Below are positions 1,390 through 50,221 of a stretch of DNA of 64,000 nucleotides, piece after piece. A program made the translations under genes and the position numbers. The DNA is taken from assembly GCA_045837725.1 (NCBI GenBank), contig JBEWZL010000126.1, forward strand, positions 124,001 to 188,000, written 5' to 3'. Source of the stretch: Vermamoeba vermiformis. Taxonomy: Eukaryota. The notes under the pieces were generated by a model. The model was not told the DNA's origin, did not search any database, and saw only the letters and a program-made list of their open reading frames with translations. Every line of letters starts with the position of its first letter. Position 1 is the first letter of the stretch.

Positions 1390-4059
1390 ATGAGCGGACG
1401 TAAGATTACTCTCGCCGAAGTGGCCCAACACAACAAAGCCGATGACTTGTGGATTGTCGTCGCAGGCAAGGTGTATGATGTGACAAAGTTCTTGTCCGAA
1501 CATCCCGGTAAGTTCGTACTACGATAACGTATTTATAAATGATATATTCACCACAATTTAAACATTTTGGCACGTAATTTCGAAAGTGCAACGTTTCTTC
1601 AAAGAGTTTTTTTGGATTCAAATTACGTATTTAAAAATAATTTCAAGAATGAAGCCTTGTAGAATTAGTTATGAATTTACTACGATGATTTTTCGTAATA
1701 TTTCCAATGGAATCATTTATTTAAATGGATTTGTCTCCACAGGTGGCAAGAAGGTCCTCGTTAATGTCGCTGGCAAAGACGCTACCAATCAATTTAATCA
1801 ATTCCACAAAGCCGATGTATTAGACAAATACGCGCCCAAGCTTTACATTGGAGACGTCACCGAAGGAGATGCGCGTCACTCCAACTTGGATAACAAGAAA
1901 TCTGTTCGTACTAACCCCGAAGGAATGACAGTCGCTCCTATGCAATTTGCTGCTGCTTTAGGAGGTAAGCTCAACAAATAGTCGACAATTATGCCTTAAA
2001 TACAGTAGTTAGATGAATAGCCGCTATTTAAGTGCATATTTTACGTTATTGCTCAGAAAGTTTTTAGAAGGCGTTCTAATTAATGAAATACGTTGCTAAT
2101 GTAGTTTATAATAGAGGGCACGTTCGGCGACCTCGTTCCGTTTGGGGATCCGTCGTGGTACCAAACCTGGCACTCAACTTATTACAACGAATCTCACAAG
2201 AAATTCCGTGCTGCAGTCCGCGAGTTTGTTGAGAAGAACGTGATGCCGTTTGTTAACGAATGGGACATGAAGAAACATTTCCCTAGAGACTTGTTCAAAA
2301 AGTCGTATGAGGCTGGTGCGTGGATCTTTCATAATACCGCGATTCAAAGGAGTTTTCTAATATTCGATTATGGACTATAGGTATTTTGCCGAGCGGTGCT
2401 GGTGCTCCTTGGCAGACTGAATACGCTGGCACTCACATCGCTGGTGGTGTCAAGCCCGAAGAGTTTGATTACTTCCACGAGTTGATTGCCGTCGATGAGA
2501 TGTGCCGCTGTGGTGCTGCTGGTGTTTCCGCCAGTTTTGTTGGTCTTAGCATCGGTAAGCGAACCACACATACGCTGGATCTGCTCGCGTCCCTGGTCTT
2601 ACTAGTCAATTAGGCTTGCCTCCTGTCTTGAAGTTTGCCAACAAGGCACTCAAGGATAAGGTCGCTGGTCCTTGCTTGAAGGGTGACAAGATCATCTGCT
2701 TGGCTATCACTGAACCGTGGGCCGGATCTGATGTTGCTAACATTCGCACTGAAGCCAAGTTGACCGCTGACGGCAAGCACTACATTGTCAATGGCGAGAA
2801 GAAGTGGATCACTAACGGTAAGCGTTATGTCCAAAAATTAGTGGCCGTGCGCGGATGTGGAACAAGTGCAGTTCTAGCTAAAGTAGTGACCCGAACACGG
2901 CGTTGCAAAGCGTCTCGGGCACGACCACACTAACAAGAATGCACCGCTTCCCGTCCGATCAGCGAAGTTAAGCTTGTTCAGGCCTTCTTAGTACTGGGGT
3001 AGGAGACTACCTGGGAATCGGAGGTGTTGTGCTCTTATCTTTTTGCATTCGGCTCTTATTCCTTTTTTTGTTTTCGTGTGGGATTCTTTCTTTTTCCTAT
3101 TGAGATCCGGATGCGACATCCGCTCGTGGTTTACTTTTTTTTAACGTTACCAAATAATTAACTTCCGTATTCAGGTGTCTACGCCGACTTCTTCACCGTT
3201 GCTGTTCGCACTGGCGGTCCTGGTATGGAAGGCATTTCGCTTTTGTTGTTGGAGAAGGGTATGCCTGGCATTACCACCCGTGAAATGCACGTCAGCGGTC
3301 TCTGGGGCTCCGGCACCACTTATATTACCTTTGAGGACGTCAAGGTTCCTGTTGAGAACCTGATCGGCAAAGAGGGTCGTGGATTCAAGTACATTATGAG
3401 GTACGCATGACTATAATATTACGATCTAGATACTAAACTGACTGTTTTGTTTCTTATTAGTAACTTCAATCACGAGGTATGCATGACTATAATATTACAT
3501 TCATAGTAAACTAACTGTCTTAGCGATGGGGCATTATTGTTCAAGCCATCCGTTGTGCTCGTGTTTGTTACGAAGAGTCCTTCACTTACGCCCACAAGAG
3601 AAAGGCATTCGGCAAGAGATTGATTGACCAGCCTGTCATTCGTAACAAGCTGGCTCACATGGCGTACGTATTATTATTCCAAATTTTCGAAATTATGGCA
3701 GTAAATTGATCCGGTTAAATTTTAGTCGCCATATTGAGGCTTCTCAAAACTGGCTTGAGAACGTAACCTATCAAATGACCAAGATGGGTGAACAAGAGGC
3801 TAACATCAAGCTTGGTGGCCCTATTGCCCTCTTGAAGGCTCAAGCCACGCTCACCTTCGAGTTGTGCGCTCGTGAGGCCGCACAGGTTATGGGTGGTATT
3901 GCTTATACTATGGGCGGTCAGGGCGCTAAAGTTGAGCGATTAAACCGTGAAGTGCGTGGTTGTGCTATTCCTGGTGGCTCCGAAGAAATCATGCTCGATC
4001 TCGGCATGCGTCAAGCCATCAAGATCTACCAGATGACCTCAAAGATGTCAAAGTTGTGA
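1390..4059 (+). CDS. Cytochrome b5 domain-acyl-CoA dehydrogenase fusion, multi-exon
   Basis: N-terminal [15 protein letters not shown] cytochrome b5 heme motif. ACAD motifs [35 protein letters not shown] and IPGGSEEIM lie across spliced exons. Confidence 0.93.
2917..3035 (+). rRNA. 5S rRNA gene located in intron 2818-3174 of the acyl-CoA dehydrogenase gene
   Basis: 119 nt. Helix I GGGCACGAC/GTTGTGCTC; conserved CCCGTCCGATC, box A AGTTAAGC (2966-2973), loop E TTAGTACTG and ACCTGGGAA. Followed by a T5 run. Confidence 0.95.
3040..3044 (+). terminator. Pol III oligo-T terminator of the intronic 5S gene
   Basis: TTTTT a few nt after the 5S 3' end, with further T runs downstream. Confidence 0.7.
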
Positions 4060-17233: not shown

Positions 17234-17575
17234 ATGGAGAACAAGAACGACGACGAAGAAATATTTGAGATATTATTTAGAGTGTGGGAAAACAGCACAC
17301 CAACCTATTTAACTGATCGAGCCTTATTGCGGTTTTTTGGTGTCCGAACAATTAGTGACGGCGATATACTTCGAATTCCTGCATCCAAGACTCTGCAGTG
17401 GAAAGCAGAAAAGAGGGAAGCATTGTTTGAAGCGCGGATTGCCGATCTCAAAGACATCCGAAGCAGAAGAAACATGACGACAAGTTTTTTGATCAGAGGA
17501 GACTACAATATGATTATTGAGTGCTGGTTAGTAAATTTACGAAACACGAAAAGAGAATGTAAAAAAACATTGTAA
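17234..17575 (+). CDS. Hypothetical 113-aa protein, tandem copy B
   Basis: Same length as copy A with no indels, and many differences are synonymous. Confidence 0.65.
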   Translation: MENKNDDEEIFEILFRVWENSTPTYLTDRALLRFFGVRTISDGDILRIPASKTLQWKAEKREALFEARIADLKDIRSRRNMTTSFLIRGDYNMIIECWLVNLRNTKRECKKTL

Positions 17576-18002
17576 ATACTATCGATTAAAGACAAATTCT
17601 GCAAAGTAACGAATCCGCTCCTCTTGTACTACTTAATTATAATTTCAAATTTAGGTTTTACAACGTCGAACTGCATTTTAACAGCTAAGATCTGCAAAAA
17701 GCCAGATCCGCGGGTAATATTTTACTCTATTGGTTCGCGGGCCAATTTGGAGGCCAACCACAATTTTAGTTAACAACGAAGCATTTGGAAGCATTGAACA
17801 GGCAAATAGAATCAAAACCTAATTATGGATTTGTCACCAACGCGAAGTAAAATTCTCGCAATGTCCAAATTTAGATTTTTGTTCGTTATTGAAACTGGAG
17901 TTTATCCGCCAAATTCAGAACTTACTCGTTAATGAACTGAGCAACACAAAATAATAATAATCACGCACGTATTTTTCAAATCTTCGCTGTGCGCTATTCA
18001 CG

Positions 18003-20985
18003 ATGGCACAAGAGGTAAGAACGGACACGTTTCAATCCAGATCTATTTTGAATTTATATTTAATAATTCCATTATAATAGAAGAAAAAAATTGTGGCTAT
18101 CATAGGCGGAGGATTTGCAGGCGTGCATATTGCGAAATATTTGGACAAAGACGATGATTTCAAAGTGATCCTGATTGACAATAAGGAATATTTTGAATAC
18201 TCACCGACTATGTTAAGAGCATTATTCACACCAGAAGAGGCTTCGTCGTTAATAGTTCATCACAGCAATTATTTAATTAATGGCGAGTTCGTACTCGGAG
18301 TTGCAGAGGAGTTACAAACCAAAAAGGTACCCAAAAACGGTTATAATTATTAATTATAGGATTATTTAAATTATATTGAAGCGTTCCGGGTAAATTTGAC
18401 GATGATTATGCCGTTGATTGCAAGATCAACATTTTTTACGCTTCTCACTAAAACTCCGAAATTACCACAACAATATACGAGCTATCAATATAGTTATTAT
18501 GTTATTTCTTCTTGATTTGCTTTATTTTTCAGCATCCGATGAAATCAATCTCCCTTTTAATCTCCCGATTATCTCATGAAACAAACGTCTATTTTGATAC
18601 ACATAATTTAAAAAAGATTCGCTGAAATTTTAAAATAGCTAATTAGAGTACATTCATAGGTTAAAGTGAGCGGCCGATGGATTGACTTCGATTACTGCGT
18701 GGTTTGTACTGGATGTCGCTTTGATAGCCTTTCACTGAAAGAAGAAAGCCTGAACAAAGGCTTATTTAATGACGAGCAGTCATTAATGCAAAATAAGCGG
18801 TATGTTAGCATTTTAAATGTGTCGTTGTGAATTATCCTGATTTGTTTTTTTCCCTGATCGCAGATCTTCCGTGCAGCGCAGCCGTCGCCTATCATCTCCG
18901 AATCCTAAAAGGGCTTCAGTTAACTTATCTTCACCTGCTCAATCACCATCGACACAACGGTCACTTAGTCCAACAAAAGCTCGCGGCAGATCGCCCTCGA
19001 CCGAGCCAAGTCTGACCAATAGCATTACTCCTCGTCGCAGTATCTCGCCGCGAGATATCGAGAGTATGTCTAATTCGTCTCGCGAGGACAGTCACGGGTC
19101 ACGGGATTCATCTCCGAGACCAGATCTAGCCGACACGATTTCAATGCTGTCGTCACCCCGTGGCAGCGATGGCCAAGTTAATTCAAAGAGGCTTAGTGTT
19201 GAGGCTAGAGTAAGGGCTGATACAATCACTTTGCAAGATCCAAAACGAAGATTCAGCATGTTCGACGTGGTTTATGAAGACGTGATTGAATATCGATTCT
19301 TCAAAAATTATTGCAAAGAAAGGCTGTGCATGGAGAATTTGTTGTTCATAGAGGCAGTTGATGAGTATCATCGATTATTCTATACTTGCACGAAGCGAGT
19401 AAGTTTTTGAATCAAGTTTATTAGCTGATCTAAATTTTATCTAAATTTTGCCTTTTTAGGAAATGCGACAGTTAATCAATTTTGTCAAAATATCGTATTT
19501 AAACGAGGGCGCTAAGTTCGAGGTTAATATGAGCTCAATCTACCGCGAAAATTTATTGAAGCAGATCACCGAGATCGAGAAGACTCCCGACGATCAATTG
19601 GTCTTAGATGAAAAGTTGTTCGATCAAGCACGAGCTCATGTCGTAGCCAATCTCAACGACGTGGTGTCAAGTTTCACTGAAGATATTGAACGATCCAGCA
19701 AGACCGTGCACGTGGACTACAGAATGCCGTCCATGCTCACTTCGTGCGAGTCCGTGAAAAGCGCCAAATCGATCGTGATTATCGGCGGTGGTCCCCTCGG
19801 TGTCGACGTGGCGGGCAGGATAGTATCGCAATATCCCGATAAGGTAAGTACTTCTGTCAAGTCTTATAAATCGGTCACTAATCGACCCTTGACAGCGTGT
19901 CACAATTATTCACGGCAAACCATCTCTCATTCATTACTTGGGAAAGAAAGCCTCAAAAGTTGTCACAAAGTACGTACCTAATCAATATATATAGTGGTAC
20001 TAAAATTTAGCCATGGATATGAAATAATGGTTGTGTGATCGGTGAGCGGATCTAACATATATTTTTTCACGATTAGTTTTTTGGTGGAAAGAGGCGTGCA
20101 ATTACGACTGAATGAACGGGCAGCAAAAGTCATCGCGTTGAATGCAAAACAATCAGTGCTGACTGACCGCGATGAGCTCTTGGAGGCAGATCAAGTGTTC
20201 ATTTGTGGTGGATCCGTCGGCAACACTGACTTTATGCACAAGTACTTTGGTCACGTGCTCACTGAACACGGAAAAATTCAAGTGAATCAGCACTTGCAAG
20301 TCAAAGGGCACACGCATTTGTTCGCTGTGGGAGATGTGACCGACATCCACGAAGAGAGATCGCACGAACGAGCGATTAGACACGCCGATCTATTTTTGGC
20401 TAATATTATGAGACTAGAAGCAAAACGAAATCTTAAGGCTCATTCACTGGTAAGAATAACTGAATCAGATCTCGCAAAAATTCAAAATTTCAGAAACTGA
20501 TTTTTTATTTTTAGGAGTTATTTAAGCATAAATATATTATTTCGCTTGGAAGTAATGGTGCTATGATGGTTGCAAAAGATAAAACTGTGACTGTTGGCGG
20601 TCACATTGCAAAACTTCATGTGAGCACCGAAAAGAAATTTTTGTCGGATCTGAAGGCAGCAGCGCACAAAAAGAAAAGAAAACGAAGAGTTTCTGCCCTT
20701 AGTAGTGGCAGCGACCGAAGTAATTCACCGGTTCGGATCACATCCAACACGAATCTAGTGCACCGAAACAGTTTTGACGAGTTAGAACTCTCTACGAGCG
20801 TTCAAAGTCCACGCGATCGTGCTCAAGATATTTTAATATTAAAAGAGAGCACTAGTCCGATACAATCTCCGAAGAAAAAGAAATTGACGACGAGTTCGAG
20901 CAAATCCACGGATGGGCCTGGAAGCCACGAAAAAGTGATGCAAGCGCCGAGTATTGCTAGTATTCCTGAAGAAGTAATGCAGTAA
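18003..20985 (+). CDS. AIFM2/FSP1-like pyridine nucleotide-disulfide oxidoreductase with an internal RGS domain
   Basis: FAD motif IIGGGFAG, FDYCVVCTG, NAD motif IIGGGPLGVD and FAVGD. Between the first and second dinucleotide motifs lie a Ser/Pro/Arg-rich linker and an RGS signature (FFKNYCKERLCMENLLFIEAVDEY...YLNEGAKFEVNMS...LFDQAR). Confidence 0.85.
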
Positions 20986-21389
20986 TATTGGCATTGTTTT
21001 GTTGTAATATAGAAATGTAAATAGTGGACCAAATGCGTTTAATGCAACTTTGCACTTGTTTATTTCGTGAAGTACTTGCCAGAAAATTTAATCTAACAAC
21101 TATAAATATTACGCAACTAGATAGACTCGGCGTAGTCCAGCATCGTTCTGTCAGAAGGCTGTATGTCACCCGCTGACACTTTGACCTGTCAATTTTTCGT
21201 TGTCGAACAGCTAACTTAGTCAAATTGTACCGTCCTGTCAGAAAACTAATCATATAGATCTGACTACTAGGGTAGCTCTCTGTAGTGGCAAACTTATAAC
21301 CGAACTACTTGTTTTGTCATCTTTAAGTACGGATCTTAGCTGTAACATCAGAATTGTTTTGATCATGGTGCTTTTCCTGCAAAATTTAT

Positions 21390-24375
21390 TTATTTACAAA
21401 CGGCGCCAGTACACAGTCGCAGCCATTGTGGCAAAGGACACGCAAAACTATTTCCAGAGATATTACACTCTGAAGGCGGATCTGTATAATCAACAGCCGA
21501 GGTGAAGTTATTATAAGCAATATTAAGGCTGAATAGGACCGTCAAAGTTGGAGCTGGCAGCACAAATTTTCCGCTAAAATTATTGAACTGCAGCTCCACC
21601 GAATCGCCTTCCCACGCACTCGGCAGCTTATCAAGGCCACCAGTCAGATAATTATACGCGAGTTTCAATTGTTTTAGGCTCAGCGGAATTTCCGGAATTT
21701 CTCCGGAGAGTGATGTATTGTAGAACACCATAATCGAGAGTTGTGAAGCGGATGCGAAGCTCGGCAAAGTTCCTTCTAACATGTTGTGCAATATTCTTAT
21801 TGTTTTAAGAGTTGTTATCGTTCCTAACTCCGGAGGCACTGTTCCCACGAGATTGCAATCGAATAGGTATAAATTCGCCAAATTTGTCGCGTTAATCCAT
21901 GCTGGCAACGTCCACGGATCGAAGAAATTTCCTTTTATGTTAACTTCTTCCAGTTCTGTCAAATTGAAGACTTCTGTGGGAAACTGTCCTTGGAACTTGT
22001 TATCGCGCAATATAAAGCTCTTCAAATGCACCAATCCTCGGAATATTTTTGGAATTGTTCCGCCAATCTCTGTTTGAGTAAACTGCAGATCCGTCAACAT
22101 CGTCAATTCTCCGAGTGATTCGGGGAGTGTTCCGGTCATGTTGTTCGGTTCAGTGAATTGCAATGATACGACCCGATTGTTCGAGTCGCAGTTGACGCCT
22201 TGCCAGCTACACACTGAAACATTTGTCAGCCAATTACCGCTCGTTATCCAATTAGGCCCGCCAGTGGCATAATAAAATTCTTCTAATATCGTTCTTTCTC
22301 TTGCTATGACGTCGATTGGAGGACCCGGATCTGCGATCGGTACCGCGATCGGGATCTGGATCGGGATCGGCACTTCAACAGGGACAGGTGCTTCGGGGGT
22401 GAATATAGGACTAATAGGGTTTAGTTGAGGTTCATTAGGGCTGTTAACTTGTTGTTGCAATGACGACCAAATGAAGTACGCTCCGACTGCCACACTGACC
22501 GCCAACACCAAAATGGCCCCACCAATCATAAGCCAACGAAATTTGTTCCGCTTCACGAACGGTTTTTTCCGCTCTTTGACTGAAAACGAATTACTTTGTG
22601 ATTGCTGCTTGTATCTTTGCTGTTGTTCTTTGATAGTGAATTCTTTGTACAACATGTCCATGAGTTGCGTGACTTGACTGACACTCGATTTGAGCTCGTT
22701 AATGTCTTTGAAATTTTGTTTGATTGATTCGCTCAAGTACGGCAGCAATGATTCGTAGTCGACGTGAAGAATTCCTATTCGAAAAAAAAACAATTAAATT
22801 TGTGTTCAGATCCAATCGATGCGATTGCATTTCTTGCAATATCAGACTTTCCAAATTTGGTAATAAAATGTGCGGATTGGTTGTCTGCTACGCCAATTTA
22901 AATGCTTCAACGTGTCAATTTCAGTCTAGGAAATGAATACATTCCAAAAATATTTTAATCGTACCAATATGTAATAAATCGTTATTTGCGTATTAAATTT
23001 TAAAATTTGAATTCGATCTGGGGTCGTACCATTGATTAATTGGACTGCTTGCGGCACGACTTTTTCTATCTGTTGCGCGATATATCCAACGAATCTTTTC
23101 TTCGAATTATTGTTGCCTTTAACTCCGTCTTTGAACTTGTACTCGACACCATCGATTCGCAGAAGCGCTTCTCGAGGATCCACATCTGGAAAAAAAAACC
23201 AGTTACGTTTAAGTGATATGAAATCAAATTTTATGCCTTACTATCGCTTATATATCTAATTTGTTCTTTTAAGTTGATGTCCGACGCTTTGTAAAAGTTC
23301 AATGCTCGGAAGTTTCCGATCACTTCTGCGTTGCCGTTGTACAGCACCATGTATTGCTCGTTGTCTTCATAATTCCTATAAATATGCGAATAAATAACAT
23401 GTACGATTTATATAGTACTATCATTACGTACGTCGGTGGCTCTAACTCGCCGACTGAATCTGATCCAGAACCAAGGAAATTTAGATGGTAGGTACTGCAC
23501 GTAGTTAGCGATGCAAAAACTTAATATTCGAACTTACGTCATAGGTACTATCATGCTATCATCAGAGTCAATATGTTCGGCACTATAAGGGCTTCGTTCG
23601 TTCGCAGTGCTAAGATTTTGATTGGATGGCGAGTCGTCGCCGTGTGGATCTAACGAAACAAAGGATCTTTGGGCATATAATTGTTCATATTGTAGAGGCT
23701 CGGTTGTATTGGATTCATTAATTAATAAATCAGGGGTGGATGTCCAAGCCACGGGGATAATCGGAACTGATTTTATGAATTGTTAGAACGTTTATTGCTA
23801 AGATTTACTAGGCTATTAATATGACATATGAAAGCTTATTAGATTCGCAGCGGATCTATTATTTGAAATTTTTTATTTTCGAAATCTGTCGTTAATCTTA
23901 CCGTCGTCGACTTCGCTTTCCTTCTCACTAGCATATCTTTTTTTGGCTAATAATTGAACCAATCCTGATGTGCCTTGGTTCAGCAACCTCCCGCCATTGA
24001 AACATTTTACTTCGAATCTGATCAACCGCTCTTTGATACTCCGAAAATCAAATAATCCAGCGTTGACTTTAATTTGTATCACGAGGCCTTCTATTATTTT
24101 AGTATTTGCATTGGTTTGTAGTTTATAAGGCAATCTTTTTGCCCAAATTAACGCTCGATTAATTTTTATCTCTTTAGATCCTTCACAATTAATAAGTTCC
24201 ACTTGGTATTGCCATGCTTCGTTAGTATTGTCTTTCGAAAGGGTTACTCCGAGTGTCGGATTTGACGTTTGGTCGACATGGAATTGATTATCATCCTCGC
24301 CACTGACCGGAATAAATAACTTGAAGTTGGTTAGCACATATATTTGTTGCATTGCATTGCATTACTACTGTCATA
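21390..24375 (-). CDS. MYRF/MrfA-like membrane-tethered factor: beta-rich N-domain, peptidase S74 autocleavage domain, coiled coil, TM, LRR ectodomain
   Basis: Exons splice in frame. GNAEVIGNFRALNFYKASDINLKEQI (SDINLK at 23267-23284), GYIAQQIEKVVPQAV, LHVDYESL, TM WLMIGGAILVLAVSVAVGAYFIW, LRRNT NW...VCSWQGVNC and GTLP/GTIP-type LRRs. The start codon is uncertain (24352 or 24375). Confidence 0.8.
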
Positions 24376-30905: not shown

Positions 30906-33898
30906 ATGGCGACAACAAAGAACGAAAAGCCCAATGAACCAGTACGTACCATTGTTGGTATACTTTGTTAGGCCGACGACGCTAATTATTATTCATTACA
31001 GATTATCCTTCATTTTGAGTGGACAGCGAAAAAGAATGAAGATGTTGTACGTACACAATTGGATCCACATTTAATTTCGAGACGGGTGATTGACGCAGTA
31101 TTTTACAGGACACCGCTATCGCTGCATTGAAAGTATCGACGGATCATCAGTTAGCTCACTGCCCTGGAGTAGACACATACGCTTTCAGACGCGTAAATGC
31201 AAATACGATTCGTCTAACGGAGGTCTATCGTGACACGAAGACGTTTTGGTCGCACATCCCCAGCGGATCTTACGTCTCCGACAAGCTACAGTTTTTATTC
31301 GACACATCAATTCGTGACCATGCAACTGGTGTTGGTGTCGGACAACTTCCTGAAGGCATTGAAGCAACGGTGAAGCTGATTGGTGGTCATTCGTCCCCGC
31401 TCATGGCAGGATTTGTGCTCAACCCGTCATTTTCTCCGCTCAACATCAAGCCTGTCTTGCTCACTATGCTTATCAAGAATGGATTCGAAGAGAGCTCGCG
31501 AGATTTTGTTCTGAAAGCGTTGGATCCGCTCGTTAGTGCAGCAGCAAAAAATCAAGAAGTTCGAACCTGCGCAGTGTTTCATAATGAAAATGACGTCCAG
31601 CTCACCGTTATCTCGGCCTCAGATTCGGCTATCGCTTCAATTCTCACTTCAGCCAACTTGGATCCGCTTCGCAACCAGTTTCAGCTTGCTACAGAGCTCT
31701 GTGGTAACATTAGTGCGGAGTCTCACGAGCAGATATTGGCAACAGGTCTCGCCTTTGATACGAAGAAAGAACTAGATGCTGGATACATCCTTCACCCTGC
31801 TTGTTTTATTGCCACGAAACCCGAGTCGAACACGTCCTTGCAGCCATCGTCCCTCTCAGCGCCACCAACAACGGAGTTATTTACGCTTGTCATAGACCCT
31901 TATACGAAGGAGGCAACAGCTATTCGATTCGCTCAGAGTGCCCCAGGTCGTTCACCACATCAATACAAAGCAGGCACGCCTAGTCAAGTAGTGACGACTG
32001 AAGGGACCCTCGAAGTGCCCTTACTCCACATTGTGCGCAAACTTTCAGGCTCTGGAGGAACCGACCTTGAAATAGCCATTCCTAAACTCTTTGGCCTATT
32101 GGAACGATTGCGCTCGTGGCAACGGAGTGTTCTTCTGTTCAACCGTTTGTTTGACCATGGCGAGCAATTGACCGAAGAAGAACAGTACTTTGTCGAGACG
32201 TTTGTCGAGAATTTGAACAATGTTGGATATCCTCAACGAGCCAAAGACAAGCGCGTGAACATTGATGGCTTGGACGAGTTCATTCAGACGATTGAATGGG
32301 CCATGCGCGAGATCATTGAACCTGCCCGTGCCTCACTCGCAACAGCACACCAAGTCACGTACAAAGGCTTAATGGAAGCGTTTCCGATTGGCTCAATTGT
32401 CGTTGGACAAGCTGCTGGTCTCGGCGGGGCTCTGGTGGCCTATCGTGTCTTCGATTGCTACATGAGCACGCAGCGGTCCATGTTCGGCACGAGCAAGTAC
32501 ATCTTCACTCTTGGCCTCGAGTTCGTGGTCAACTTGGGCGCTCATTTTTGCGTGTGCAACTTTGAAGACAAGATTGAAGAGTTTGAAGGTGAACGTGACT
32601 TGGCGAGTCTGCCTTATGTGCCCTTGACATCACGTGCTAATGAACGATCAATGTTGATTTCTCGTGGCAAAGCTGTGGCCGAGCTTGGCGTCAAACCAGT
32701 GTACCGATCGTACGCGTCTGGTGCTTTCTTCGCTCATCTTGCAGGCAGCTCTAGCGGCGCAGCAGCTACCACTGGCGTGCATCAAGCAGGCTCAGGACGA
32801 TGCATGGTCGATAATGAACGAGGTCTGTTGCTTGGACACGCCCCTGGCGTTTCATACGATGGTGCAGGCATCGCTATTCAATCAACGATTAAAGTCTATC
32901 GTGTCGCTGTTCGTGCGTCACATGAAAACGAATCTGAAGCTGCCAAACAAGAACGCATTAAGAACGCACGACTACGCTTGTTCAAACACCTGCCAAGCCA
33001 CTTTGAAGTCATAACTTGGCCCGCGGTCGTGGCCTACAGCTTCACATGGAAGACTTGGGGTCACGTGCTCACGAGTGGCCTCAGCGAAGTTCAATTCAGC
33101 GACGAGCCGTGGAACCAACTTGTGCTTCCAAAACGAACCAAAGAACTTCTGTTTGCATCAGCTCTCTTCAATCTGAGCGGTGCTCCAGGCGTCGGTGATT
33201 TGATCAAAGGCAAATCTCAAGGCGCTTTGTATCTCTTGTACGGCCCTCCAGGCACCGGAAAAACTCTAACAGGTACGGATCCAAATTTCAATTTTATCAG
33301 GCAGGGGTCTTATTTAGTATTTTTTGCAGTCGAGGCTATTTCCGAGAAGTTCAAATTGCCACTTTACACGGTGTCTCTTGGTGAGCTCGGTACTGGTGCC
33401 CAAGAAGTTGATGCAGCGATCAACAACATCTTAGCACTTTGTGCACAATGGAAAGCAATCGTGTTGCTCGATGAAGGTGACGCATTGCTGGAACAGCGAG
33501 AGAAAGGCAAGCTGCAAATGAATTCATTGACTGGCGTGTTGTTGCGATCGTTGGAGAACTTTGACGGACAGCTGTTTATCACCTCGAACAGACTTCAACA
33601 CATTGACCGTGCTGTCCTGTCACGTGTCACTTTGGCTGTCAAATACGATGAATTAGACGCAGCTGCACGTGCTTGCATTTGGCGCAACACGCTCACTCGT
33701 GCGGGAGTGGACTTGTCAAATTTAGATACCGATGCTCTGGCTCAGTACGAGATCAGTGGCCGAGAGTTGTTGCACATTGTCAAGCTCGGATTGGCACTGG
33801 CATTCTATCACAAGTCACCGTTGACGCAAGAGCTCATTGTTGCTGCGTTAGAAGAGAGTCTCGAATTCAGATCTCACTTTCCTACAACGAGTTATTAA
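30906..33898 (+). CDS. AAA+ ATPase with a long N-terminal region (possible dimeric alpha-beta barrel/ABM-like domain)
   Basis: Walker A GPPGTGKT, Walker B LLDEGD, sensor TSNR and SRV. There are two short 5' exons and an in-frame intron near 33273-33329. Confidence 0.85.
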
Positions 33899-36967: not shown

Positions 36968-39900
36968 TTACTTGACCATCGATTTTAGGATAGCGCCACT
37001 GGTTCTCGAAAATCAATTGATCAGTATTGTACGTCTCGAAGTTTAAGTCCCTCTGCGGAAAATAATCGCGCTTGGCAAAATAGGGCTCTATCAACTGTTG
37101 AATAGGATTATCCTTCTCTATAACAAACTATTAATACTTCTAATCTTCAAATATAAACTAACAACGTACCCAAATTAGGCAAAACCATTTCTTTCCATTC
37201 ATGAAAAGGATACTTCTCAAAGCTGAAATCCGTTAACTCTTCAATGGTGGTAATCCATTGATCGAAGTTCAGTCTATACGGGCTATAGATATTGAAGATT
37301 TTGCCGTTCAAGCGTTGAATTTGAGATCCAGCTGCAACAATGATCTTGGCTGTAAAATCAACTGGCGTCATTTCAAGCCTTGCGTCAGTGAAAAATGGCG
37401 CCTTCTGAGTCGCAATTATTCCGCGTAGCAATCGATTATCAAAATCGTCTGTTGAGTAGTCAGATCAATTAGTCAAAAATAGATCCGTATATATTTTTCT
37501 TGCCTTCGTTGCAATAGCCTGTTATTGACGAACTAGATATCATACCAGGTCTCAATATTATGGTCTTAAGACCTAATTTGTTAGCCTTGTAGACCAACTT
37601 CTCGGCGACAAATTTGCTCGTACTGTCAACAGTTAATAAATTCATCGGCTCGATTGAACATTAATATAACTCTTACTTGTACCCTCCAAATGCATTTGCT
37701 CGCTTATTGAACTCTTCAGCAAAATCTTCGTAGTTAAGTTCAATTTCCCTGCGATAATTGTCGGTCCAACAGGCACTAGTAGTAGACACGTGGACTAATG
37801 ACTTGACTTTGTCCGTCCATGCCAAATCAATCACATGCTTTGTACCGATAACGTTGGCTATCTTAAGCACTGAATAAGGCAAGACTGAATTGACTTGCGC
37901 AGCTGAATGGTAGATCTGATCCACGGATGTAGAGAGCTCTTTGTAAACTTCTTCTGTAAGCCCTAGTTTCTCTTGCGAAATATCGCCAAGTACCTTGAAA
38001 CTAATATTAACATTTTGGATCGAATATGATATTAGTAAAGACGTACTGGTTTGACGATCTGATCGTATTTTTCAAGCCACTCCATCTTTGCGTAGGCAAA
38101 ACGAGCCTTGATTACATCAAGCGGAGTTGTGTTTGATCGATCTTTTGCGGGTCTAATCAAGCAGTAAATTGTTGAAATTTCGGGTTGAGTTGTCAAGAGC
38201 TCGTACAACAGTTGGGTGCCCAAGAATCCGGTGACACCTGTCAACAGCACAACTCTAACAACCTCTGCCACTATCTTTGTTATTCTTTGTCATATCTATT
38301 TTTGGAGTGATCTCGTCAAGGATTTCAAGTTCTTTTCGAATGTCAAATTGAAGTGTAGGGTCCACTTTCGACGTCGTCACGAGCTTTGATAATGATTCAA
38401 TAGTTGCATTCTAACGGAAATATGTTAGCGCTTGCCATCTATGTTACATTTATACTACCTCGTTGAATAACGCGTTCATTGGAAGATCGACCTTGTAGTC
38501 ACTTTTGATCATGTTGCGAAGCTTTACGGCACTCAACGAGTCAACACCAGCGAACGTAAGTTTTGCTAAGAGAATATATTAATATATTAATATGATGTAG
38601 TCGTCATTGTTATCTTATGCAAAAATACTTACTGTTCGTATCTGCGGCTGGTGACGAAATTCCGAGCTCCTCTAACATTTGCTTGATTTTCTGTACGATC
38701 TCCGCACTATTACTTTCATTATTGACCTGATTAACCTTTTGAGGCTCTTCTCCCAAACGTTCATAAGCTTCGGAAATCTCCTTTTGGAATTGCTTCTCGA
38801 GTAAGTGCCTCATGATTTTCCTATCGTCACCTTTGATCAAGGGCTCAGGCACCAAAATAACCCCCAATGGTATTTCATGAGGTCGTAGATGCTCTTTTCG
38901 AGCTATTCTGTGTAACTCGTTGTTGATCAGAATTGTCGCATCCGGAGTCTTCAGCGCTTCTTCAAACGATTTCTTTTCAGTGAAATGTTTCTGAGCCCAC
39001 ATTTCAACGACAGTACGCTTTGGATGAATAACACAAAGCTAAATCAAGCATTAACATCGATTGAAAGTCTCGGATGACATGACACGTGTCAAAGAGAGCA
39101 TGACCTTGTGACAAGAATTTACGTACCAAATATGATTTCAACGGGTTACCGTGAACATAAATGTCTTCGATGAACGGGCTTTGCACGTAAAATCCCTCTA
39201 ACCGAGAAGGCCTTCATAACGACGTTAGTACGTACTTTTATCAACATTGTTATTCGAACTTACGCGACGAATTCTCCTTGCGCTAACTTGAAAATTGACT
39301 TCTTGCGGTCTATAATATGAATCTCATCGTTGGGCAATAGTTCAATAATATCGCCTGTATGGTACCATCCGTCGATGAACACTTCACCGCTGCAAAAAAA
39401 TATGTCAATTCTAGTTTTCATGAACGGCGAAATTTCTATCCTTACGTTCGACTAACATCACCATAGTATCCGTTAGACTAAAGAAACTTATTGTTAGTAT
39501 ACTAATCAGGCCTAATTTTGATTTGTCACGAGACGTACTTTGTATTCTTTTTTAACGCACAGCTCGCCTCTTGGATACGGCAAATCTTTGCTAGAATAGC
39601 CTTCCCAATCCTCTAACTTGTAAACTAAGAATAGAAAATAGGTCACAATAAATTATTTTGGCAATTACTAAGCTACCTAGCCTCGAGCTCAAATATCCAT
39701 TGGTTGCGATTGTTCCGACTTCAGAAGCGCCATATGACTCATATACTTTAGCTTTCGGAAATAAGCGCTTCATAAGTGCAAAGACCTCGGGACCAATCGG
39801 TGCTCCTCCAGTCATAATTTTGTCAACACGGGTGCCGAGAATCGTTGAGAACTTGGACAAAGCTATTTCATTCGCTTGTTCGAGCTGAAAAATAGCGCTA

Positions 39901-41703
39901 CTAGTGCCAAAACTTGCGTCACGTCAATCCAAAAATAATAATTTTAATAATTCATCAGATCAGATCCCAAACGAAATAAATCGCATTTTGCGGACTTACC
40001 GAGTGGCCTTGCTGCATCAAATCATTGACAGCGGCTTTAAACTCTGCATAAATCTTGTTCCAGAAGACAGGTGTGGCAGCAACGCTACTAGGCTGAAGGA
40101 TCTGGATGTCCTCGAAGAGCAGATCCACGTTCTACAAGCCGAGTCAGTATATAATTAAATTATGCCAATTATGCTATAATAACTAAATGCTCTAAATATA
40201 TGCTTACTCTTGAATAGATTGCCGTTCTGAGTCCGCAAACAACAGCGCGGAGGTCAGTTTCTCGCTCACTATTGCTCCATCGTAAGGCAACACCATAACA
40301 CCCATGAGTAAGATCAGTATCAAGCCATTTCCTAGCATACTTCTCGGTGACTACTACTCCTTTAGGTACTCCAGTACTGCCGCTAGTGTCTGAAAAAGTG
40401 ATAAGTACACGTTCAAAAAAACGAGTAATTTCAGGAATTTTTAGTCGTTAGAGCGTTTTTTTTGGCATTATATTTTGTATATATAAGTGTTTTTTAGCAT
40501 ATTATACGACTTACAAATCAAAGTCGCAACATCGTCCGGTTTTGTATTGCCAACAAGCATGAAGCTGTTGTTCTTCTTGCCCATTCGTTCAATTTCGCTA
40601 AATGAATATATTTTCAACCCATCTTTGATCAAATGTCCGTATTTTTCTTGAATTATTGCTTTTGTCAAGACAGAATTTGGTATGAAAATTAAGAACGAAA
40701 TTGACGGCGTGTTTTTGCTAACAAGCAACGCATTTTCTATTGTAGTGTCGTCGCATACTAATCCTTTCATTTTTGTATGATTTACGATGTGCGTGACTCC
40801 ATCAACACCTAAAGTTATTACGGATCAGATCAGGGTTCAATTTTTAAATTCGTTATTATGCTTTAGTCCTTACCCAAGTTGTACGGTATAACAGGACCAA
40901 TAATATTATTAACGTAGCACGAAAAAGTAGCGATGTACCAATCAATGCTATTGCGTCCAAATACTCCAATGAAGTCTTTTAGATCCACGAACTGCCGTAA
41001 ACCAAAACCAAAATTCTTTATGCGCTCAAACACTTCTTGATAAGTGAGCCATTTAAATTCCCTTTTAAATTGGCCGTTTGAGTCGATTTCTCGGTACCCT
41101 AAGCACGGTCTAGACAAGTGTTAAAAAATAAATCAGTTAATTACTTTTTACGTTACCTTTTCGCCCAGAACTTGAATGCGTTGCTATAATTAATTAGCAT
41201 TAGTCGTTAAGATACTCCTAAATAAAATATACTAACCAAAGCACTGCGCAAACGCTGTCACCAGATCTGACTTCTTTCTTAATCTTCTCTACATGCGATT
41301 TCTCGTATATTAACTCGTGCTCATGGTTGATTGTTGGTTTGCATTCCACACAAACATAATAATACTCCTTGCAATCTACGCACAGAATATTAGAGCTACC
41401 CCGATCTTCAGTTGACACGATTATGCATCATATAGCACTGAATAATATGAAAAAATGTTGATAATGTCATTCCGAGTGCTATTATTATTGTGAGAATAGC
41501 ATGCCTGCTAAATTTTTAAATTATTAATATTTTTGTTATTAATTATTAATGTTGATTACCGAGACAAATATACCGTGGCTTCGACTTATAAATGAACTTA
41601 TTGCAATGTACGCATTTTACGCGATTTTCTGGTCCATTGATTAGTGATCAGGGTCGGTGTAAGATCTCGGCTGCTTACCAGTACCATCAACAACGGACAA
41701 CAT
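36968..41703 (-). CDS. Carboxylic acid reductase-like NRPS-like enzyme (ZZ zinc finger-adenylation-thiolation-thioester reductase)
   Basis: CVHC...YICLDC...VCVEC...[38 protein letters not shown]; carrier motif GVDSL; reductase [16 protein letters not shown] and NVIGT. Confidence 0.88.
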
Positions 41704-43872: not shown

Positions 43873-44961
43873 TTATACACTTACGCGCTCCAAGTCGAAC
43901 AAGATCTCCTCAAAAGACGGTCGATCTCGGAAGGGCTTGCAACCAACACTTTTGCATAATCTCTGCAAGTATAGGGTTGCAGTTGACAGGTACTGGCAGA
44001 ATCTTGTTTTGATGCGCTACCATTGTGATGACTTGAAGTGGCGTGTGACCAGCAAACGGTGCCTGCACATTAGTCTATTAGTCACTTGCGGAGGGTTTAT
44101 CGCTTTTACTCTTAGACTATACTTACTCGCAATGTTATCAACTCCCACATGACGACGCCGAATGACCATACATCCACTTTCTCGCTGTAACTCTCTTGTC
44201 GTAACACTTCAGGAGCCATCCATTGAGGTGTACCGACACGTGTCATTTTTTCAGTCAAGAACTTGACACGACTCATGCCAAAATCAGCGACCTTGCAATT
44301 CCATTTCTCGTCGATCAAAATGTTGTGGCTCTGCAGACAACTGTTAGCAAACATGATCTAACTTCGAAAGAGCAAAACGAACCTTCAAATCGCGATGAAT
44401 AATTGGTGGGTCACACGCGTGCAAAAATGCCATGCCACGCGCAATTTGTTTCATAATGCGGACGCGCAAAGGCCAGCTGAGTTGAATCTTCTCTTTTGAT
44501 TGCTCGGAGGATGCAAGATATTCCACAACGAGGCCTCTTGACATGAACTCCTTCATGATTGCAAAGTTGGGTGCTTTGACGCTCAGACCAATGAACGTGA
44601 GAATATTTGGATGATCAAGCGTGCTGAGTAATGTGCACTCTTTGATCAAATCTTCAAACACTTCTTGCTGCTCTGACACCGACAGTGACACGCGCAACTT
44701 TTTGATAGCGACGGGTGTCTTCTTCCACGTGCCTGTATAGATTGTTAAGCACGCAATACACATTACAAGAACTGTTATTATGTACCTGAGTAGACCTCAG
44801 CAACGTGACCTCGACCGACCATTGTATTGAGTTTCAACTTCACTGGCCAATACAATCCTCGCTTCAGTTCGAAACGTCTGGATCGCACAATGTTTCATGT
44901 CACTGTTACGCGATCTGGTAAACATTTCTGCCTCGTGCAAACTAGTCCATGAATATACCAT
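43873..44961 (-). CDS. Tyrosine kinase-like (TKL) protein kinase
   Basis: [33 protein letters not shown] and DVWSFG. Both ends are approximate. Confidence 0.88.
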
Positions 44962-46106: not shown

Positions 46107-49100
46107 ATGTCGACACCCAACAACAATAATACAGCATCTGCAAGTGCTCCACAAATTAGCACTTCGAGTAGTAACGTGGGAGCGGCTAATACTGACAGTA
46201 TGTTGAAGTAGCGCTTCAATAATTTATTCTGATATTAATTCCTCGTGCAAATGAATCATCTGCCATACCGATGCCTATTACAGCGGGTGATAAATTATTT
46301 TACTATTTTTCGGCAGATTTCTTGCAGATTGAACTACTCCTCTAATTTGCTTTAGGTCCTATCTTGTCGAGCGATATTTTTCACGAAGGCGATGTCATCA
46401 CATTACGCAAATATAAAGGCGACGGCTTATGGAAAGTAGAAGTCAACGGACACATTATGCTGATTCGCATCCCCGAAGTTCAAATAAAGCGGGTTGCAAA
46501 CGAAGACGGCAAGGGAATGAAAAAGCGAACAAGCATGGTACGTTTAAATTATATAAATACGATGAAATTTAATTATTATCAATACACACTTCCCGAGATA
46601 AGTGGCGAGATTTTTGAGAGATCACACGTAGAACAAAAAAATTAGCTAATAATAGAATAATAATAAATTTATGCTCTACGTGGCCCTACCATCTATGTCA
46701 TAATTTGGCGGTTCATTTGACCAAATTACGGACCCCGATCGAGTTACATTTTCAAAATTGCTTGTAAAAATTGCTCCTTTTGTGTCGTGTACATTTTCTT
46801 TTTGATACACTTGTTAATGTTTCCATTGTAGATGTCATTGATCGGCAAACGTAAGTCCAAATCAAAATTGCTTGGTGAACCAAAGATTGAAGTTGTGCCC
46901 GAAGGATCCAATGCCGCAGGAACCCCCGGTACTCCTACCACCTCCACTAGCATTAGTGATGACTACGGTAAGCTATTCATATCTATACTACATCTAATTG
47001 CACAAATTATTTCGAGTTTTGGCGGTTGTATGTAGCTCGTACAAGCACATACCTGTCACGAGATGAATTACATTGAAATTCTTTATTTTCATGCCATATT
47101 TCAAAAGTCTTTATTGTTTAAGATGCTGATAAGTTATATTTATCCTTGCTATAATATACAAAGCTTTTTAAAAGTATAACTGAAATCATGCGACACGCGA
47201 TCCAACTGCCATTAGATCTGCGTTAGCAACAATACCTTTTGCATATTTACATATTCTACATTATTTACCCGACGAGCTGAATCAAATGCATAATTGTTTT
47301 CAAATTCTATGTATCCCCTTATGCTTGCATGGTCGGCTGATCTAATGTACAGAAAAATACGCCTTAGACAAGCAAGCAAAGAAGAAAACAATGCGCAAGA
47401 GCATGATGAAGATCCCTTCATTACCTACCAAATTGCCTAATCAAGCGAGACTCACTGCACAACAGGTACGCACCTTATTTTTTTTTCAACCATTTTTTGG
47501 ATCTTTTCACCTTGCTTTTACAAATTCATCTGATATTTGCTATATGGCTCAAAATTACAAAAATATTCATGCGCGCGAACATTCAACTGTTAAGCAACAA
47601 ATTGTTTTGGAAAATCTCATCGCATCTAGCCGTTACGCGTTGCACAAAATTTGATTTGTCTATCCATTTGCTTTATTCATACCGGATATATATGATTTAC
47701 ATTGCTCGTGGTCTACTTGTGCCCCCGTGGTTAGCACTTAGAATCCTGAGGAATTTCATTTCGCGGGTCGAGATTTTCGCAACGAAGAAATTTTCGGCAT
47801 TTACGCCCAATTTTGTTTGTTTGTACATAGTATAGCGAATTTTATTTGTATTATATTTATTTTATGCGGCTACTAGCGAATCAACCCTACATCCAGTTTT
47901 GAGATTCGTTGCGAAATATAAATCCACGAGCAGAAAAGCAAATGGACAAAAAATCAACCAGAAAAATTCAAAGAAATTTTAGTGGACCTCCAGTAATATT
48001 ACCAGCATTTTTGAAACGCACGCGGTTACAAATAGAAAACCGGAGAGTAAGATCACCCTGAATTTGTGCAATATTAACGTTTACAAACAATAATATCTTT
48101 TTTATTCGTATATTTAACGGGATATACAAATTCTAACATAAGTTGCTGCTCTTGGGGCGATCTTGGACGAGAACACAAGATCGCTTCGGAATAATTATTC
48201 TTGGTTAATTAATGTCGCCTTTATTACTTAATTTACCACGAGCCATATAGCAATATCGATTTATGATGCTTTTTAACATCAGAAATTCTTAACTTTAAAG
48301 TATCTTCGTGAAATATGACTTACGAGTTTTCATCTTTAGGACTTGCGAGATCTGCGCGAAGAAATCGAGCTGTTGCGCGTTGACATCGATTTATTGGTCA
48401 AAGCAGTTGGTGAGGCCAATCCTGAGACTATGGAAGACCCTGTCTTGTCAAAAGTTTCAAAGGTACGTATTGACAGCAAGAAATCTAATTTTTCGTACGA
48501 TTTTTTTCAGAGAAACCTGTTGACCACGTGGTCAGCTTATAAACCGTTGAAAATCTATAAAAACACTTGCAACGCGATTTGTGAGTCGGAACCAGGACTC
48601 ACACCGAAAGATTTGCACAAATTTTAAAAAACTTAATCTCTTTATAAGACCATCCAAAAGCCACTTAGCACTCGTAATATTTATTAACTTGATTATGCAG
48701 CTCACACCTAACGAAGCTCTGCTCGAGAAAATGTTATCGAACGCGTTCCAAGTCACAATCACGAACCCTACAAGTGGCGAGCGTGAGACAAAGTCGATTG
48801 TTTTGGCAGATCAGCCTCAGCTCCGTTGGCGAGATTTGCTCATCCCGAGCATCAATCTCAACTCGTACTCGGCCACTGAGAAACAAAAGTTGACCACGCT
48901 CGAGTTCAACTTGTTCCCCTACAAAGACGTCGAAGAAAACAAGATCCAAGAGGGACTTAACCATTTGTTCGGTTTGGTCATTCACATGTTCCACGATCTC
49001 GGTCTTATCAAAGAGTTCAGAATCCCTGAAACGACTTTGTGGAGGTAAAATTTTGACGAGATCTGCCTCGTTCAGTGCGCATTTGCTAATTATGGAATTT

Positions 49101-50221
49101 TTTCCAGATTCGTGTTCGCGTGTTCTCGTCGATACAGAGCTGTTCCTTTCCACAGCTTCTACCACGCTTTCAATGTGACACAGACTTTGTATCATTTCTT
49201 GACTGGCTGCGGTGCTTCAAAGGCCTTCGGTTCGTTGGAATTGCTGGCCATGGTTATTGCTACAATGTGCCACGATATGGATCATCCTGGTCTCAACAAC
49301 GATTTCCAACGCAAGGCTCACACGCGCATTGCTCAATTGCACAAAAAATCTATCTTGGAAAATCACCATTACTTGCAGGTACGTTGCAAAATAGCGGATG
49401 TGGATCGACTTTGGTGAACTAATTCTGATTCGTTTAAAGGCTATGGGTATCTTGGATAAGAATGAATTTAACATTTTGATCAATATGCCATCCGAACAAA
49501 GAGACCAAGTGCTTCTCTACGTTCGTGACTTGATTTTGGCGACAGATCTGTCTATGCACGGTTTAGTCATTAGCAAGTTGAAAGAGCGTCAAAAGGTCGT
49601 CAGCCGTTTGCTTCAAAAACAAAACTGCCACTTGTTGCTCGATCAAGAAGACAAGATCTTGTTGATGTGCTCGTTAGTCAAGTGCGCTGATTTGTCAAAC
49701 GAAATTCGCGAGCAATCTTTGGCCAAACAATGGGCCAAGCTGGTGCTCGTCGAATTCTTCAAGCAAGCCGATACTGAAAAAGAATTGAAATTAGAGACTG
49801 CTGCATTTATGGACAGGTACGCACTTTTTTCATTTACAAAAGGATCCGATCCTGGATCACGCTAACTTTGAATGATATGATATCAAGTGCTCGTACTAAT
49901 ATTGTTGATATCTATAGGACGAAGATTATCATTTCTAAAGAACAGTTGAATTTTATCGAAAAGTTGTGTATGCCCCTCTACACCGCGACAGTGGCGATCT
50001 TCCCGAAGATGGACAAGTGCATCAAACAAATGCAATCGAACAGAGACGAGTGGGATCGATTGTTGAACTCGTTCTTTGTCGATAAGTCCACGCTGTCCAA
50101 TCAGAGCATTTGGGAAGGCGACAAGAAGGAGAAGACACCTGAAGGCCAGAACTTGTCAACGACACTCGCCTCACGTGCTTCCAACTCGTTGCAGCCAACG
50201 ACCAAGGACAAGAAGAAGTAA
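46107..50221 (+). CDS. Class I cyclic nucleotide phosphodiesterase with an N-terminal SH3-like segment
   Basis: FHSFYHA, HDMDHPGLNN, ILENHH, ILATD, KCADLSN, EFFKQ and QLNFI. The upstream exon FHEGDVITLRKYKGDGLWKVEVNG resembles SH3. Confidence 0.9.

Follow-up and report, generated by a model that had tools for sequence, protein, structure and literature searches.

FSP1, also named AIFM2, is a closely studied quinone reductase of membranes and a blocker of lipid peroxidation, and proteins with a regulator of G-protein signalling (RGS) domain set the timing of G-protein signals. We consider here a gene of Vermamoeba vermiformis that is predicted to unite the two, with an RGS domain nested inside an FSP1-like flavoprotein; it lies on the forward strand of contig JBEWZL010000126.1, at positions 18003 to 20985 of the 64,000-nucleotide (64-kb) stretch that was analysed as a whole and that we call the window. 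Both domains are of textbook families; their nested combination, for which putative functions are proposed below, is new with respect to the literature searched.

Vertebrate FSP1/AIFM2 (PDB 8jsc, 8wik and 9ift) is the best match to both halves of the flavoprotein, in sequence as well as in fold, and the order of its motifs is the same as in the window protein: the GxGxxG for flavin adenine dinucleotide (FAD), TG, the GxGxxG for reduced nicotinamide adenine dinucleotide (phosphate), NAD(P)H, and GD. The likeness near the NAD(P)H domain can be read from VTIIHGK...VERGVQLRLNERA in the window protein and VTLIHSK...LQKGVQLLLGQRV in FSP1. Unlike FSP1, the window protein has about 280 extra residues (linker and RGS domain) in a 23-residue connector, with nothing replaced there, Asp, Arg and His at the positions of E156, E160 and K355, no MGxxxS, and a tail of about 100 residues with a polybasic run. 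The type II NADH:quinone oxidoreductases (NDH-2: Ndi1 and the Caldalkalibacillus and S. aureus enzymes) share this fold class (Foldseek, E 1e-17 to E 1e-14) and have the same proposed Glu/Glu/Lys proton relay as FSP1, according to the accessible text of PMC10643123; unlike the window protein they carry no signalling domain, they are more distant from it than FSP1 is, and the relay is absent from the window protein. The inserted domain has the all-helical fold in common with R4-like RGS domains and with EhRGS-RhoGEF of Entamoeba histolytica (4gou), the latter resembling the window protein also in joining an RGS domain to an enzyme module; in the window protein, by contrast, the RGS domain is nested in the chain of another domain and its binding to G-alpha is putative.

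The gene model was read from positions 17500 to 21500 together with the stop-to-stop frames. The eight exons (Table 1) are separated by introns of 66, 333, 64, 61, 52, 107 and 65 nt, GT-AG in 7/7, and join into a coding sequence (CDS) of 2,235 nt that is in frame throughout, without frameshifts, and whose only stop stands at its end; its start codon, picked by reading, is putatively the one at 18003. Using exon 5 as the query in a search for longer proteins, we found P0001 (93% identity to the exon), a 736-aa open reading frame (ORF) on a public contig of 2,486 nt, a length that leaves no room for introns. P0001, which lacks its own 5' end, aligns through all its residues 1-736 with residues 9-744 of the spliced window protein, at 89.7% identity; six of the ten gap columns are in the linker, four in the tail and none at any of the seven exon junctions. 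The locus is one gene, encoding a 744-aa protein. The first-pass annotation, made by reading the sequence, had placed an RGS domain inside an FSP1-like flavoprotein at outer coordinates identical with those of the CDS derived here and had held that the splice phases join the parts in frame; both statements are confirmed, P0001 presenting the same protein as an uninterrupted ORF. Transcripts that split the locus had been named there as grounds for giving up the idea; P0001, a relative and the sole transcript-like evidence, is not split. No paralogue of the gene was found elsewhere within the 64-kb window.

Table 1. Features of the RGS-flavoprotein gene (window positions; aa, residues of the 744-aa protein).
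Feature	Position	Strand	Remarks
Whole CDS, RGS-flavoprotein gene	18003..20985	+	8 exons, 744 aa
Exons 1-4	18003-18014, 18081-18326, 18660-18799, 18864-19398	+	
Exons 5-8	19460-19843, 19896-19969, 20077-20449, 20515-20985	+	
First FAD-binding segment (aa 9-108)	18093..18725	+	across intron 18327-18659; Pyr_redox_2
GGGFAG, FAD GxGxxG motif	18105-18122	+	
VVCTG	18699-18713	+	
Ser/Pro/Arg-rich linker (aa 109-262, 154 aa)	18726..19251	+	across intron 18800-18863
RGS domain (aa 265-389)	19258..19693	+	hidden Markov model (HMM) envelope; split by intron 19399-19459
Connector back into flavoprotein (aa 390-412)	19694..19762	+	carries family-conserved Tyr-Arg
NAD(P)H-binding domain and second FAD-binding segment (aa 413-640)	19763..20670	+	FSP1 match, Pyr_redox_2
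NAD(P)H motif GGGPLGVDVAGRI	19784-19822	+	Asp at human FSP1 E156, Arg at E160
GDV, FAD-binding GD motif (aa 549)	20330..20338	+	retained
AKLH	20608..20619	+	His at column assigned to FSP1 K355
Polybasic run KKKRKRR	20668-20688	+	after enzyme core
Low-complexity C-terminal tail (aa 641-744)	20671..20982	+	predicted local distance difference test (pLDDT) <50, P0001 656-733

The identity between the window protein and P0001 is not even along the chain, reaching 96% in the first FAD segment, 95.7% in the connector and 94.4% in the RGS domain, which aligns without gaps, 89.5% in the NAD(P)H part, 87.4% in the linker and 80.8%, the lowest value, in the C-terminal tail. Set beside the 96% and 89.5% of the two enzyme parts, the value for the RGS domain indicates that it is constrained no less than the enzyme scaffold that holds it.

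Pfam recognises Pyr_redox_2 piece by piece in exon 2 (E 4.5e-6, profile 3-46, 26.7 bits against a cut-off of 26.1), exon 5 (E 0.021, profile 133-159) and exon 7 (E 3e-13, profile 194-285, 50.3 bits), and gives 124.2 bits to the whole of P0001; the part with the NAD(P)H domain and the second FAD segment crosses introns 19844-19895, 19970-20076 and 20450-20514. The six best PDB sequence matches of P0001 are FSP1/AIFM2 (E 2.8e-30 to 2.5e-25), its residues 1-96 aligning to FSP1 8-104 and 403-584 to FSP1 130-317, and exon 7 of the window gene finds FSP1 by itself (E 3e-16). An AlphaFold2 model of P0001, calculated from an alignment of 122 of 157 proteins (long multi-domain proteins and fragments were left out), has pLDDT values mostly above 90 in both flavoprotein parts and of 93-98 in the first FAD segment. 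When this full-length model was compared with the PDB by Foldseek, FSP1 came out on top (E 3.9e-23; template modelling (TM) score on the target, 0.80), with alignments that cross the insertion. By sequence and by predicted fold, the flavoprotein is of the FSP1/AIFM2 type, the assignment that the first-pass annotation had made; a structure model had been suggested there as a check on whether the flavoprotein closes around the insertion, and in the model of P0001, which superposes on FSP1 across the insert, it is predicted to do so.

The Pfam RGS profile matches residues 267-373 of P0001 with 25.2 bits (cut-off 23.9, E 2.4e-5); the exon-4 fragment of the window gene scores 13.1 bits only (E 0.13, profile 6-39), which is explained by intron 19399-19459 cutting the domain. 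An independent RGS profile was built from nine relatives that carry the domain at the N-terminus, without the window protein; residues 276-387 of the window protein reached 24.4 bits against it, and none of 200 sequences in which the insert had been shuffled exceeded 4.3. In the PDB sequence search, a 160-residue stretch of P0001 that takes in the insert matched the RGS domain of EhRGS-RhoGEF (4gou) at E 3e-6, with ENL of the insert over EENL and EVN over QVN; in the accessible part of PMC3641396, this domain is described as a canonical RGS domain and as a GTPase-activating protein (GAP) for G-alpha in vitro. Foldseek on the full-length P0001 model returned flavoprotein matches only and is uninformative on the insert, which was therefore modelled alone, from an alignment of the P0001 insert with eleven relatives (A3, 12 rows); the resulting AlphaFold2 model has a pLDDT of 87.9 and a predicted TM score (pTM) of 0.77. 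Its 12 PDB matches at E <= 0.001 are without exception to RGS domains (4gou, RGS8 both free and bound to G-alpha, RGS16, RGS2, RGS1, and RGS4 in 1agr), with root-mean-square deviations (rmsd) of 1.3-3.4 Å, TM scores on the target of up to 0.86 and identities of 14-25%; the rmsd is 1.3-1.5 Å over 112-121 columns for RGS8 and 1.7 Å for 4gou, and the rgRGS domains come lower in the ranking, with SNX13 at E 7.5e-3 only. The Asn of the EVN loop is invariant in the three inserted forms discussed below (N330 in alignment A1) and at least 90% conserved in A3 (N92); we take it to be the equivalent of RGS4 Asn128, in the loop between helices 5 and 6 that contacts the switch regions of G-alpha. Judged by profiles and by the model, the insert is a real RGS domain of canonical fold. 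A full RGS-like domain had been announced at about 19250-19675, close to the HMM envelope given in Table 1, and the lack of both an HMM and a structural match had been named as what would speak against it; both kinds of match were found.

The insertion point is the connector, at the surface, between the first FAD segment, past the TG motif, and the NAD(P)H Rossmann domain, and both of its flanks are fully kept. Among 155 family members, 127 have 20-29 residues between the FAD segment and the NAD(P)H domain; P0001 has 305 there, and two other relatives, P0002 and P0005, have 155 and 173, respectively. In these three proteins (alignment A1), the linker and RGS domain start right after TG-x-R-[FY]-[ND], and the chain resumes at the conserved Tyr-Arg and continues with the helix to GGGP-x-G; the resumed stretch aligns with the connector of about 23 residues in canonical relatives, and its Arg is invariant (12/12 rows of A3). 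P0002 and P0005 are only 29-31% identical to P0001. The Pfam RGS match of P0002 (31.2 bits, residues 146-230) falls between a FAD part that begins at residue 27 and an NAD part that begins at residue 282; that of P0005 (residues 162-265) scores 18.9 bits, below the cut-off. The architecture is not confined to this genome, and, as the alignment has it, three lineages only about 30% identical share one RGS insertion site. When the RGS part of P0001 was searched for by word index, nothing but P0001 came up; the nine hits of a profile made from the three inserted forms were dominated by canonical flavoproteins of 340 aa and included no new RGS carrier. Inserts of 63-107 residues occur at the same FAD/NAD junction in P0043, P0058, P0040, P0102, P0140 and P0107, and Pfam recognised no RGS domain in the three of them that were scanned (P0043, P0058 and P0040); this junction seems to tolerate insertions in general.

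What has changed in the enzyme is best seen in the columns of the 122-row family alignment (A2), which includes P0001; the window protein has the same residues as P0001 in the three relay columns. The column of FSP1 E156 holds Glu in 121 of 122 rows, the sole Asp being that of P0001; the column of E160 holds Glu in 112, with the sole Arg again in P0001; and the column assigned to K355 holds Lys in 113, with the sole His in P0001 and a Lys two residues before it. The last of these columns was placed from the family alignment and the C-terminus of FSP1, and its equivalence with K355 is presumptive: exon 8, compared directly with the sequences of the PDB, did not align to FSP1. The glycines of GxGxxG are intact in both motifs (GGGFAG and GGGPLG) despite the exchange of Glu for Asp, and the other cofactor positions are kept too: the GD motif has Gly in 122/122 rows and Asp (human D285) in 121/122, both kept by P0001, the column equivalent to human G244 (G505) has Gly in 120/122, P0001 included, and the FAD-binding Asp past the first beta-strand is present in 113/122.

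These exchanges fall on residues of known weight in FSP1. The E156A protein is inactive, as stated in the accessible text of PMC10516921; in that of PMC10643123, a relay that hands protons to the quinone is proposed, consisting of E156, E160, E164 and K355, the variants recovered in a loss-of-function screen are reported to include E160K and K355E/G, and Ala mutants are said to fail to rescue cells, except E164A and K43A. Three residues that align with proton-transfer positions of FSP1 are replaced (E156D, E160R and K355H) in the window's lineage only. P0002 and P0005 retain the equivalents of E156, E160 and K355; the predicted catalytic change is specific to the lineage and not to the nested architecture. 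The replacement of the usual GVE..GE by GVD..GR had already been noted; it is correct, and the counts make it stronger than was claimed. The remark attached to it, that catalysis may be altered, is well founded, and the loss of the relay residues would make ordinary redox chemistry less likely in the window protein.

The part of the insert that precedes the RGS domain is a linker of 154 residues with 36 Ser, 20 Arg and 13 Pro, in agreement with the Ser/Pro/Arg-rich linker of about 150 aa that had been described from the first reading. It corresponds to residues of pLDDT below 50 in the P0001 model (residues 134-259) and is predicted to be disordered; P0002 and P0005 have about 12 residues in its place, and the linker of about 150 residues is peculiar to the window's lineage. 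It contains nine [ST]P motifs, where shuffled linkers have 3.7 (nine or more in 5 of 2,000 shuffles), and four [RK][RK]x[ST] motifs, where they have 1.3 (four or more in 60 of 2,000); these motifs weakly suggest phosphoregulation, with which they would fit. At the other end of the protein, the C-terminal tail found no match in Pfam or in the PDB sequence search, and for its polybasic run KKKRKRR a nuclear role and a membrane role are both conceivable. The N-terminus of the window protein (MAQEKKK, from the putative start codon) is without the myristoylation motif of FSP1, which is MGxxxS according to the accessible text of PMC10643123.

For the distribution of such fusions, a HMMER search of 1.84 billion representatives gave 3,554 relatives at E <= 0.001, of which the best 150 were listed, and 33 of the longer relatives were scanned with Pfam. 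An RGS domain (E <= 0.001) was found in 10 of these 33, once nested (P0002) and nine times N-terminal, ahead of an uninterrupted flavoprotein (P0028, P0041, P0059, P0064, P0093, P0097, P0108, P0110 and P0116). The N-terminal-RGS proteins contain the same two domain families as the window protein, their RGS domains can be aligned with that of the window, and their flavoprotein core is in the same eukaryote-looking subfamily; unlike in the window protein, the RGS domain stands wholly ahead of an intact flavoprotein and the nine form a clade of their own. Of the two examined for the relay, P0028 keeps the Glu and Lys residues and P0116 is without the equivalent of E160. Other fusions among the 33 involve DEP (5), protein kinase (3) and RasGAP (1) domains, and further long relatives carry FMN_red, GST, NmrA or a second copy of the flavoprotein. 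The RasGAP fusion is P0006; kinase domains occur in P0017 and, together with DEP, in P0037 and P0038; DEP occurs in P0026 and P0068 and, with NmrA, in P0022. Fusion to signalling domains, as assigned by Pfam, is a recurrent feature of this FSP1-like subfamily, the added domains standing at the ends of the chain except in the inserted forms.

Trees of the flavoprotein core without the insert were calculated with FastTree for 138 of 158 rows (after coverage filters) and with IQ-TREE, in quick mode, for 47 of those 138. The N-terminal-RGS proteins form a separate clade with a support of 100 in the Shimodaira-Hasegawa-like approximate likelihood ratio test (SH-aLRT), and the four nested rows fall into a weakly supported group with RasGAP, kinase, FMN_red and GST fusions. 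On the FastTree topology the nested insertion needs two changes, on an unresolved fork; in the quick IQ-TREE analysis the four nested rows lie on one side of a branch with an SH-aLRT support of 53 only. At 1.03, the branch on which the window protein and P0001 sit is long, the median for end branches being 0.68. The trees are compatible with a single origin of the insertion, without showing it, and the shared insertion site argues for one. In the ESM Atlas, the cluster nearest to P0001 (score 0.97) is an 824-aa family of 59 members, most commonly from Mucoromycota, in which Pyr_redox_2 is annotated in 100% and RGS in 98%, a nested arrangement not being distinguishable there from an N-terminal one; the pair of domains is already present in public protein sets. 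Literature searches, in a collection that lacks most subscription journals, brought up nothing on the nested RGS/FSP1 arrangement, on the lineage-specific loss of the relay or on a family of such signalling fusions.

The reading that we prefer, and to which we give an even chance, is that one gene encodes an FSP1 scaffold that still binds its cofactors, has had its relay replaced, and serves with its nested RGS domain in a sensor-like role. Its RGS domain would bind GTP-loaded G-alpha at the membrane and would probably speed up GTP hydrolysis, and the flavoprotein of the window's lineage would be mainly a module for binding or sensing FAD and NAD(P)H and not an efficient quinone reductase. With the RGS domain attached to the stretch that links the FAD part to the NAD(P)H part, nucleotide or redox state and G-alpha binding could affect each other; the redox or nucleotide state may move the hinge that bears the RGS domain and may in this way set its availability, to which phosphorylation of the linker, on the evidence of its [ST]P and [RK][RK]x[ST] motifs, could add a further control. 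In P0002 and P0005, which have E/E/K kept, an active reductase under the control of G-alpha would be more likely. The first-pass annotation had deduced that heterotrimeric G-protein signalling and redox chemistry are directly coupled, and such a coupling may exist. That it is the state of the flavoprotein that controls the RGS domain, in this direction, is a tentative proposal drawn from sequence, which we place somewhat short of an even chance, and the more ambitious proposal, of a catalytically disabled FSP1 branch that acts within a wider family of signalling fusions as a redox or NAD(P)H sensor timing the switch-off of G-alpha, appears improbable as a whole.

Several observations weigh against the preferred reading. 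As regards the RGS domain, the Pfam score of P0001 clears the cut-off by a margin of 1.3 bits and that of P0005 (18.9 bits) falls below it; the RGS region has a pLDDT of 50-78 in the full-length P0001 model, and the better model of the insert alone was steered by an alignment of relatives with clear RGS domains; P0002 has Gly, and P0005 Thr, in place of the Asn of ENL; and many RGS-homology domains (those of Axin, sorting nexins and GRKs) are not GAPs. As regards the enzyme, the equivalence of K355 comes from the family alignment and not from a direct alignment with FSP1, and some activity may survive by means of an altered relay, which is conceivable since Asp keeps a carboxylate, His can be protonated and a Lys stands two residues before. 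As regards control, the enrichment of linker motifs is modest, the count of the basic motif being reached in 60 of 2,000 shuffles, and the direction of control is purely inferred.

The alternative that survives best is that of a recruited enzyme, a working reductase of quinones (or of another acceptor) with NAD(P)H that the RGS domain would dock on GTP-bound G-alpha; the RGS domain would here replace the N-myristoylation of FSP1, and receptor activation would lead to local quinone reduction or oxidants. All cofactor-binding motifs are kept, the flavoprotein has a pLDDT above 90 and superposes on FSP1 in the P0001 model, E156, E160 and K355 are kept in P0002 and P0005, and the N-terminus MAQEKKK, without MGxxxS, implies that another membrane address is needed. 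DEP domains are membrane or receptor docking modules, and they stand in place of the RGS domain in other relatives. Against this, all three relay positions are changed in the window's lineage, P0001 being the sole such exception in each column, the branch to the window protein and P0001 is long (see above), and the charge reversal E160K is a loss of FSP1 function in the accessible text of PMC10643123; for the window protein we regard the recruited enzyme as unlikely, although a serious contender.

Less probable still, to the point of being distinctly improbable, is an RGS fold that serves as a scaffold for another partner or for the membrane and has no link with heterotrimeric G proteins. RGS-homology domains without GAP activity are common, as those of Axin, SNX13/14/25, GRKs and D-AKAP2, and this alternative would also account for the marginal Pfam score of P0001, the sub-threshold score of P0005 and the loss of the ENL Asn in P0002 and P0005. 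It has against it that the best fold matches are R4-type RGS domains solved with G-alpha (RGS8, RGS16, RGS1 and RGS4), with the rgRGS domains and SNX13 lower in the ranking, that the Asn of the EVN loop is invariant, that the sister fusions use DEP and RasGAP, which are likewise G-protein modules, and that the closest sequence match, EhRGS-RhoGEF, is a proven GAP according to the accessible text of PMC3641396. An annotation artefact, in which two or three adjacent genes or a pseudogene were wrongly joined across introns, would agree with the weak RGS score of exon fragments alone (Pfam E 0.13) and with the putative start codon at 18003, and is hardly credible against a whole protein in one ORF in P0001 with all seven exon junctions gap-free, the same order of parts in P0002 and P0005, a model free of internal stops and frameshifts, and a flavoprotein half that could not fold by itself.

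If the more ambitious proposal is true, the flavoprotein acting as a sensor would give G-protein timing a direct metabolic input. The nested protein lends itself naturally to testing whether the inactivation of G-alpha is gated by redox or NAD(P)H state or, alternatively, receptor activation places a reductase at the membrane, and P0002 and P0005, with the relay intact, are a ready comparison to the window's lineage, in which it is replaced. Beyond this protein, the analysis brings to light a wider range of fusions in which an FSP1-like part is joined to an RGS, DEP, RasGAP or kinase domain. In its present state the RGS-flavoprotein serves to generate hypotheses on mechanism.

Other features of the window were recorded in passing. 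On the minus strand, a leucine-rich-repeat frame of 467 aa (21393-22793; LRR_1 E 6.1e-10) is convergent with the RGS-flavoprotein gene and faces its 3' end, the two stops lying about 400 nt apart. Two adjacent ORF pieces at 49049-49862 (+), 28 kb downstream of the gene, match PDEase_I over profile positions 1-78 (E 1.6e-25) and 79-201 (E 2e-26) and belong to a 3'5'-cyclic nucleotide phosphodiesterase, an enzyme of cyclic AMP and cyclic GMP (cAMP/cGMP) signalling. Exon-like ORFs at 1562-4056 (+) encode first a cytochrome b5 domain and then the middle and C-terminal acyl-CoA dehydrogenase domains, and this looks like one b5-acyl-CoA dehydrogenase fusion gene, another redox fusion in the window.

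At the far end of the window (59237-63999, +), three long ORFs, with the frame shifting from one to the next (59237-61786, 61722-62759 and 62662-63999, the last of which runs off the window), contain bacterial-type Ig/cadherin-like domains (Big_9, Cadherin_4 and Cadherin_5) and SibA-like Ig domains; their guanine-plus-cytosine (GC) content of 0.46-0.50 and GC skew of -0.15 to -0.23 are unlike the rest of the window (GC 0.34-0.49), and the region may represent either one giant gene of adhesin-like type, interrupted by introns or frameshifts, or foreign DNA. An intronless frame of 934 aa at 31094-33895 (+) combines an AAA ATPase with DUF7025, its nearest Atlas clusters being mostly from Ascomycota; taken by themselves, these clusters and the Mucoromycota cluster nearest to P0001 would hint at an early-diverging fungus. 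The minus strand also holds pieces of a carboxylate-reductase-like gene with AMP-binding and NAD_binding_4 domains (37676-39923), a piece of a tyrosine-kinase-like (TKL) type protein kinase (44347-44796) and a piece of a BTB_2 domain protein (56224-56577).

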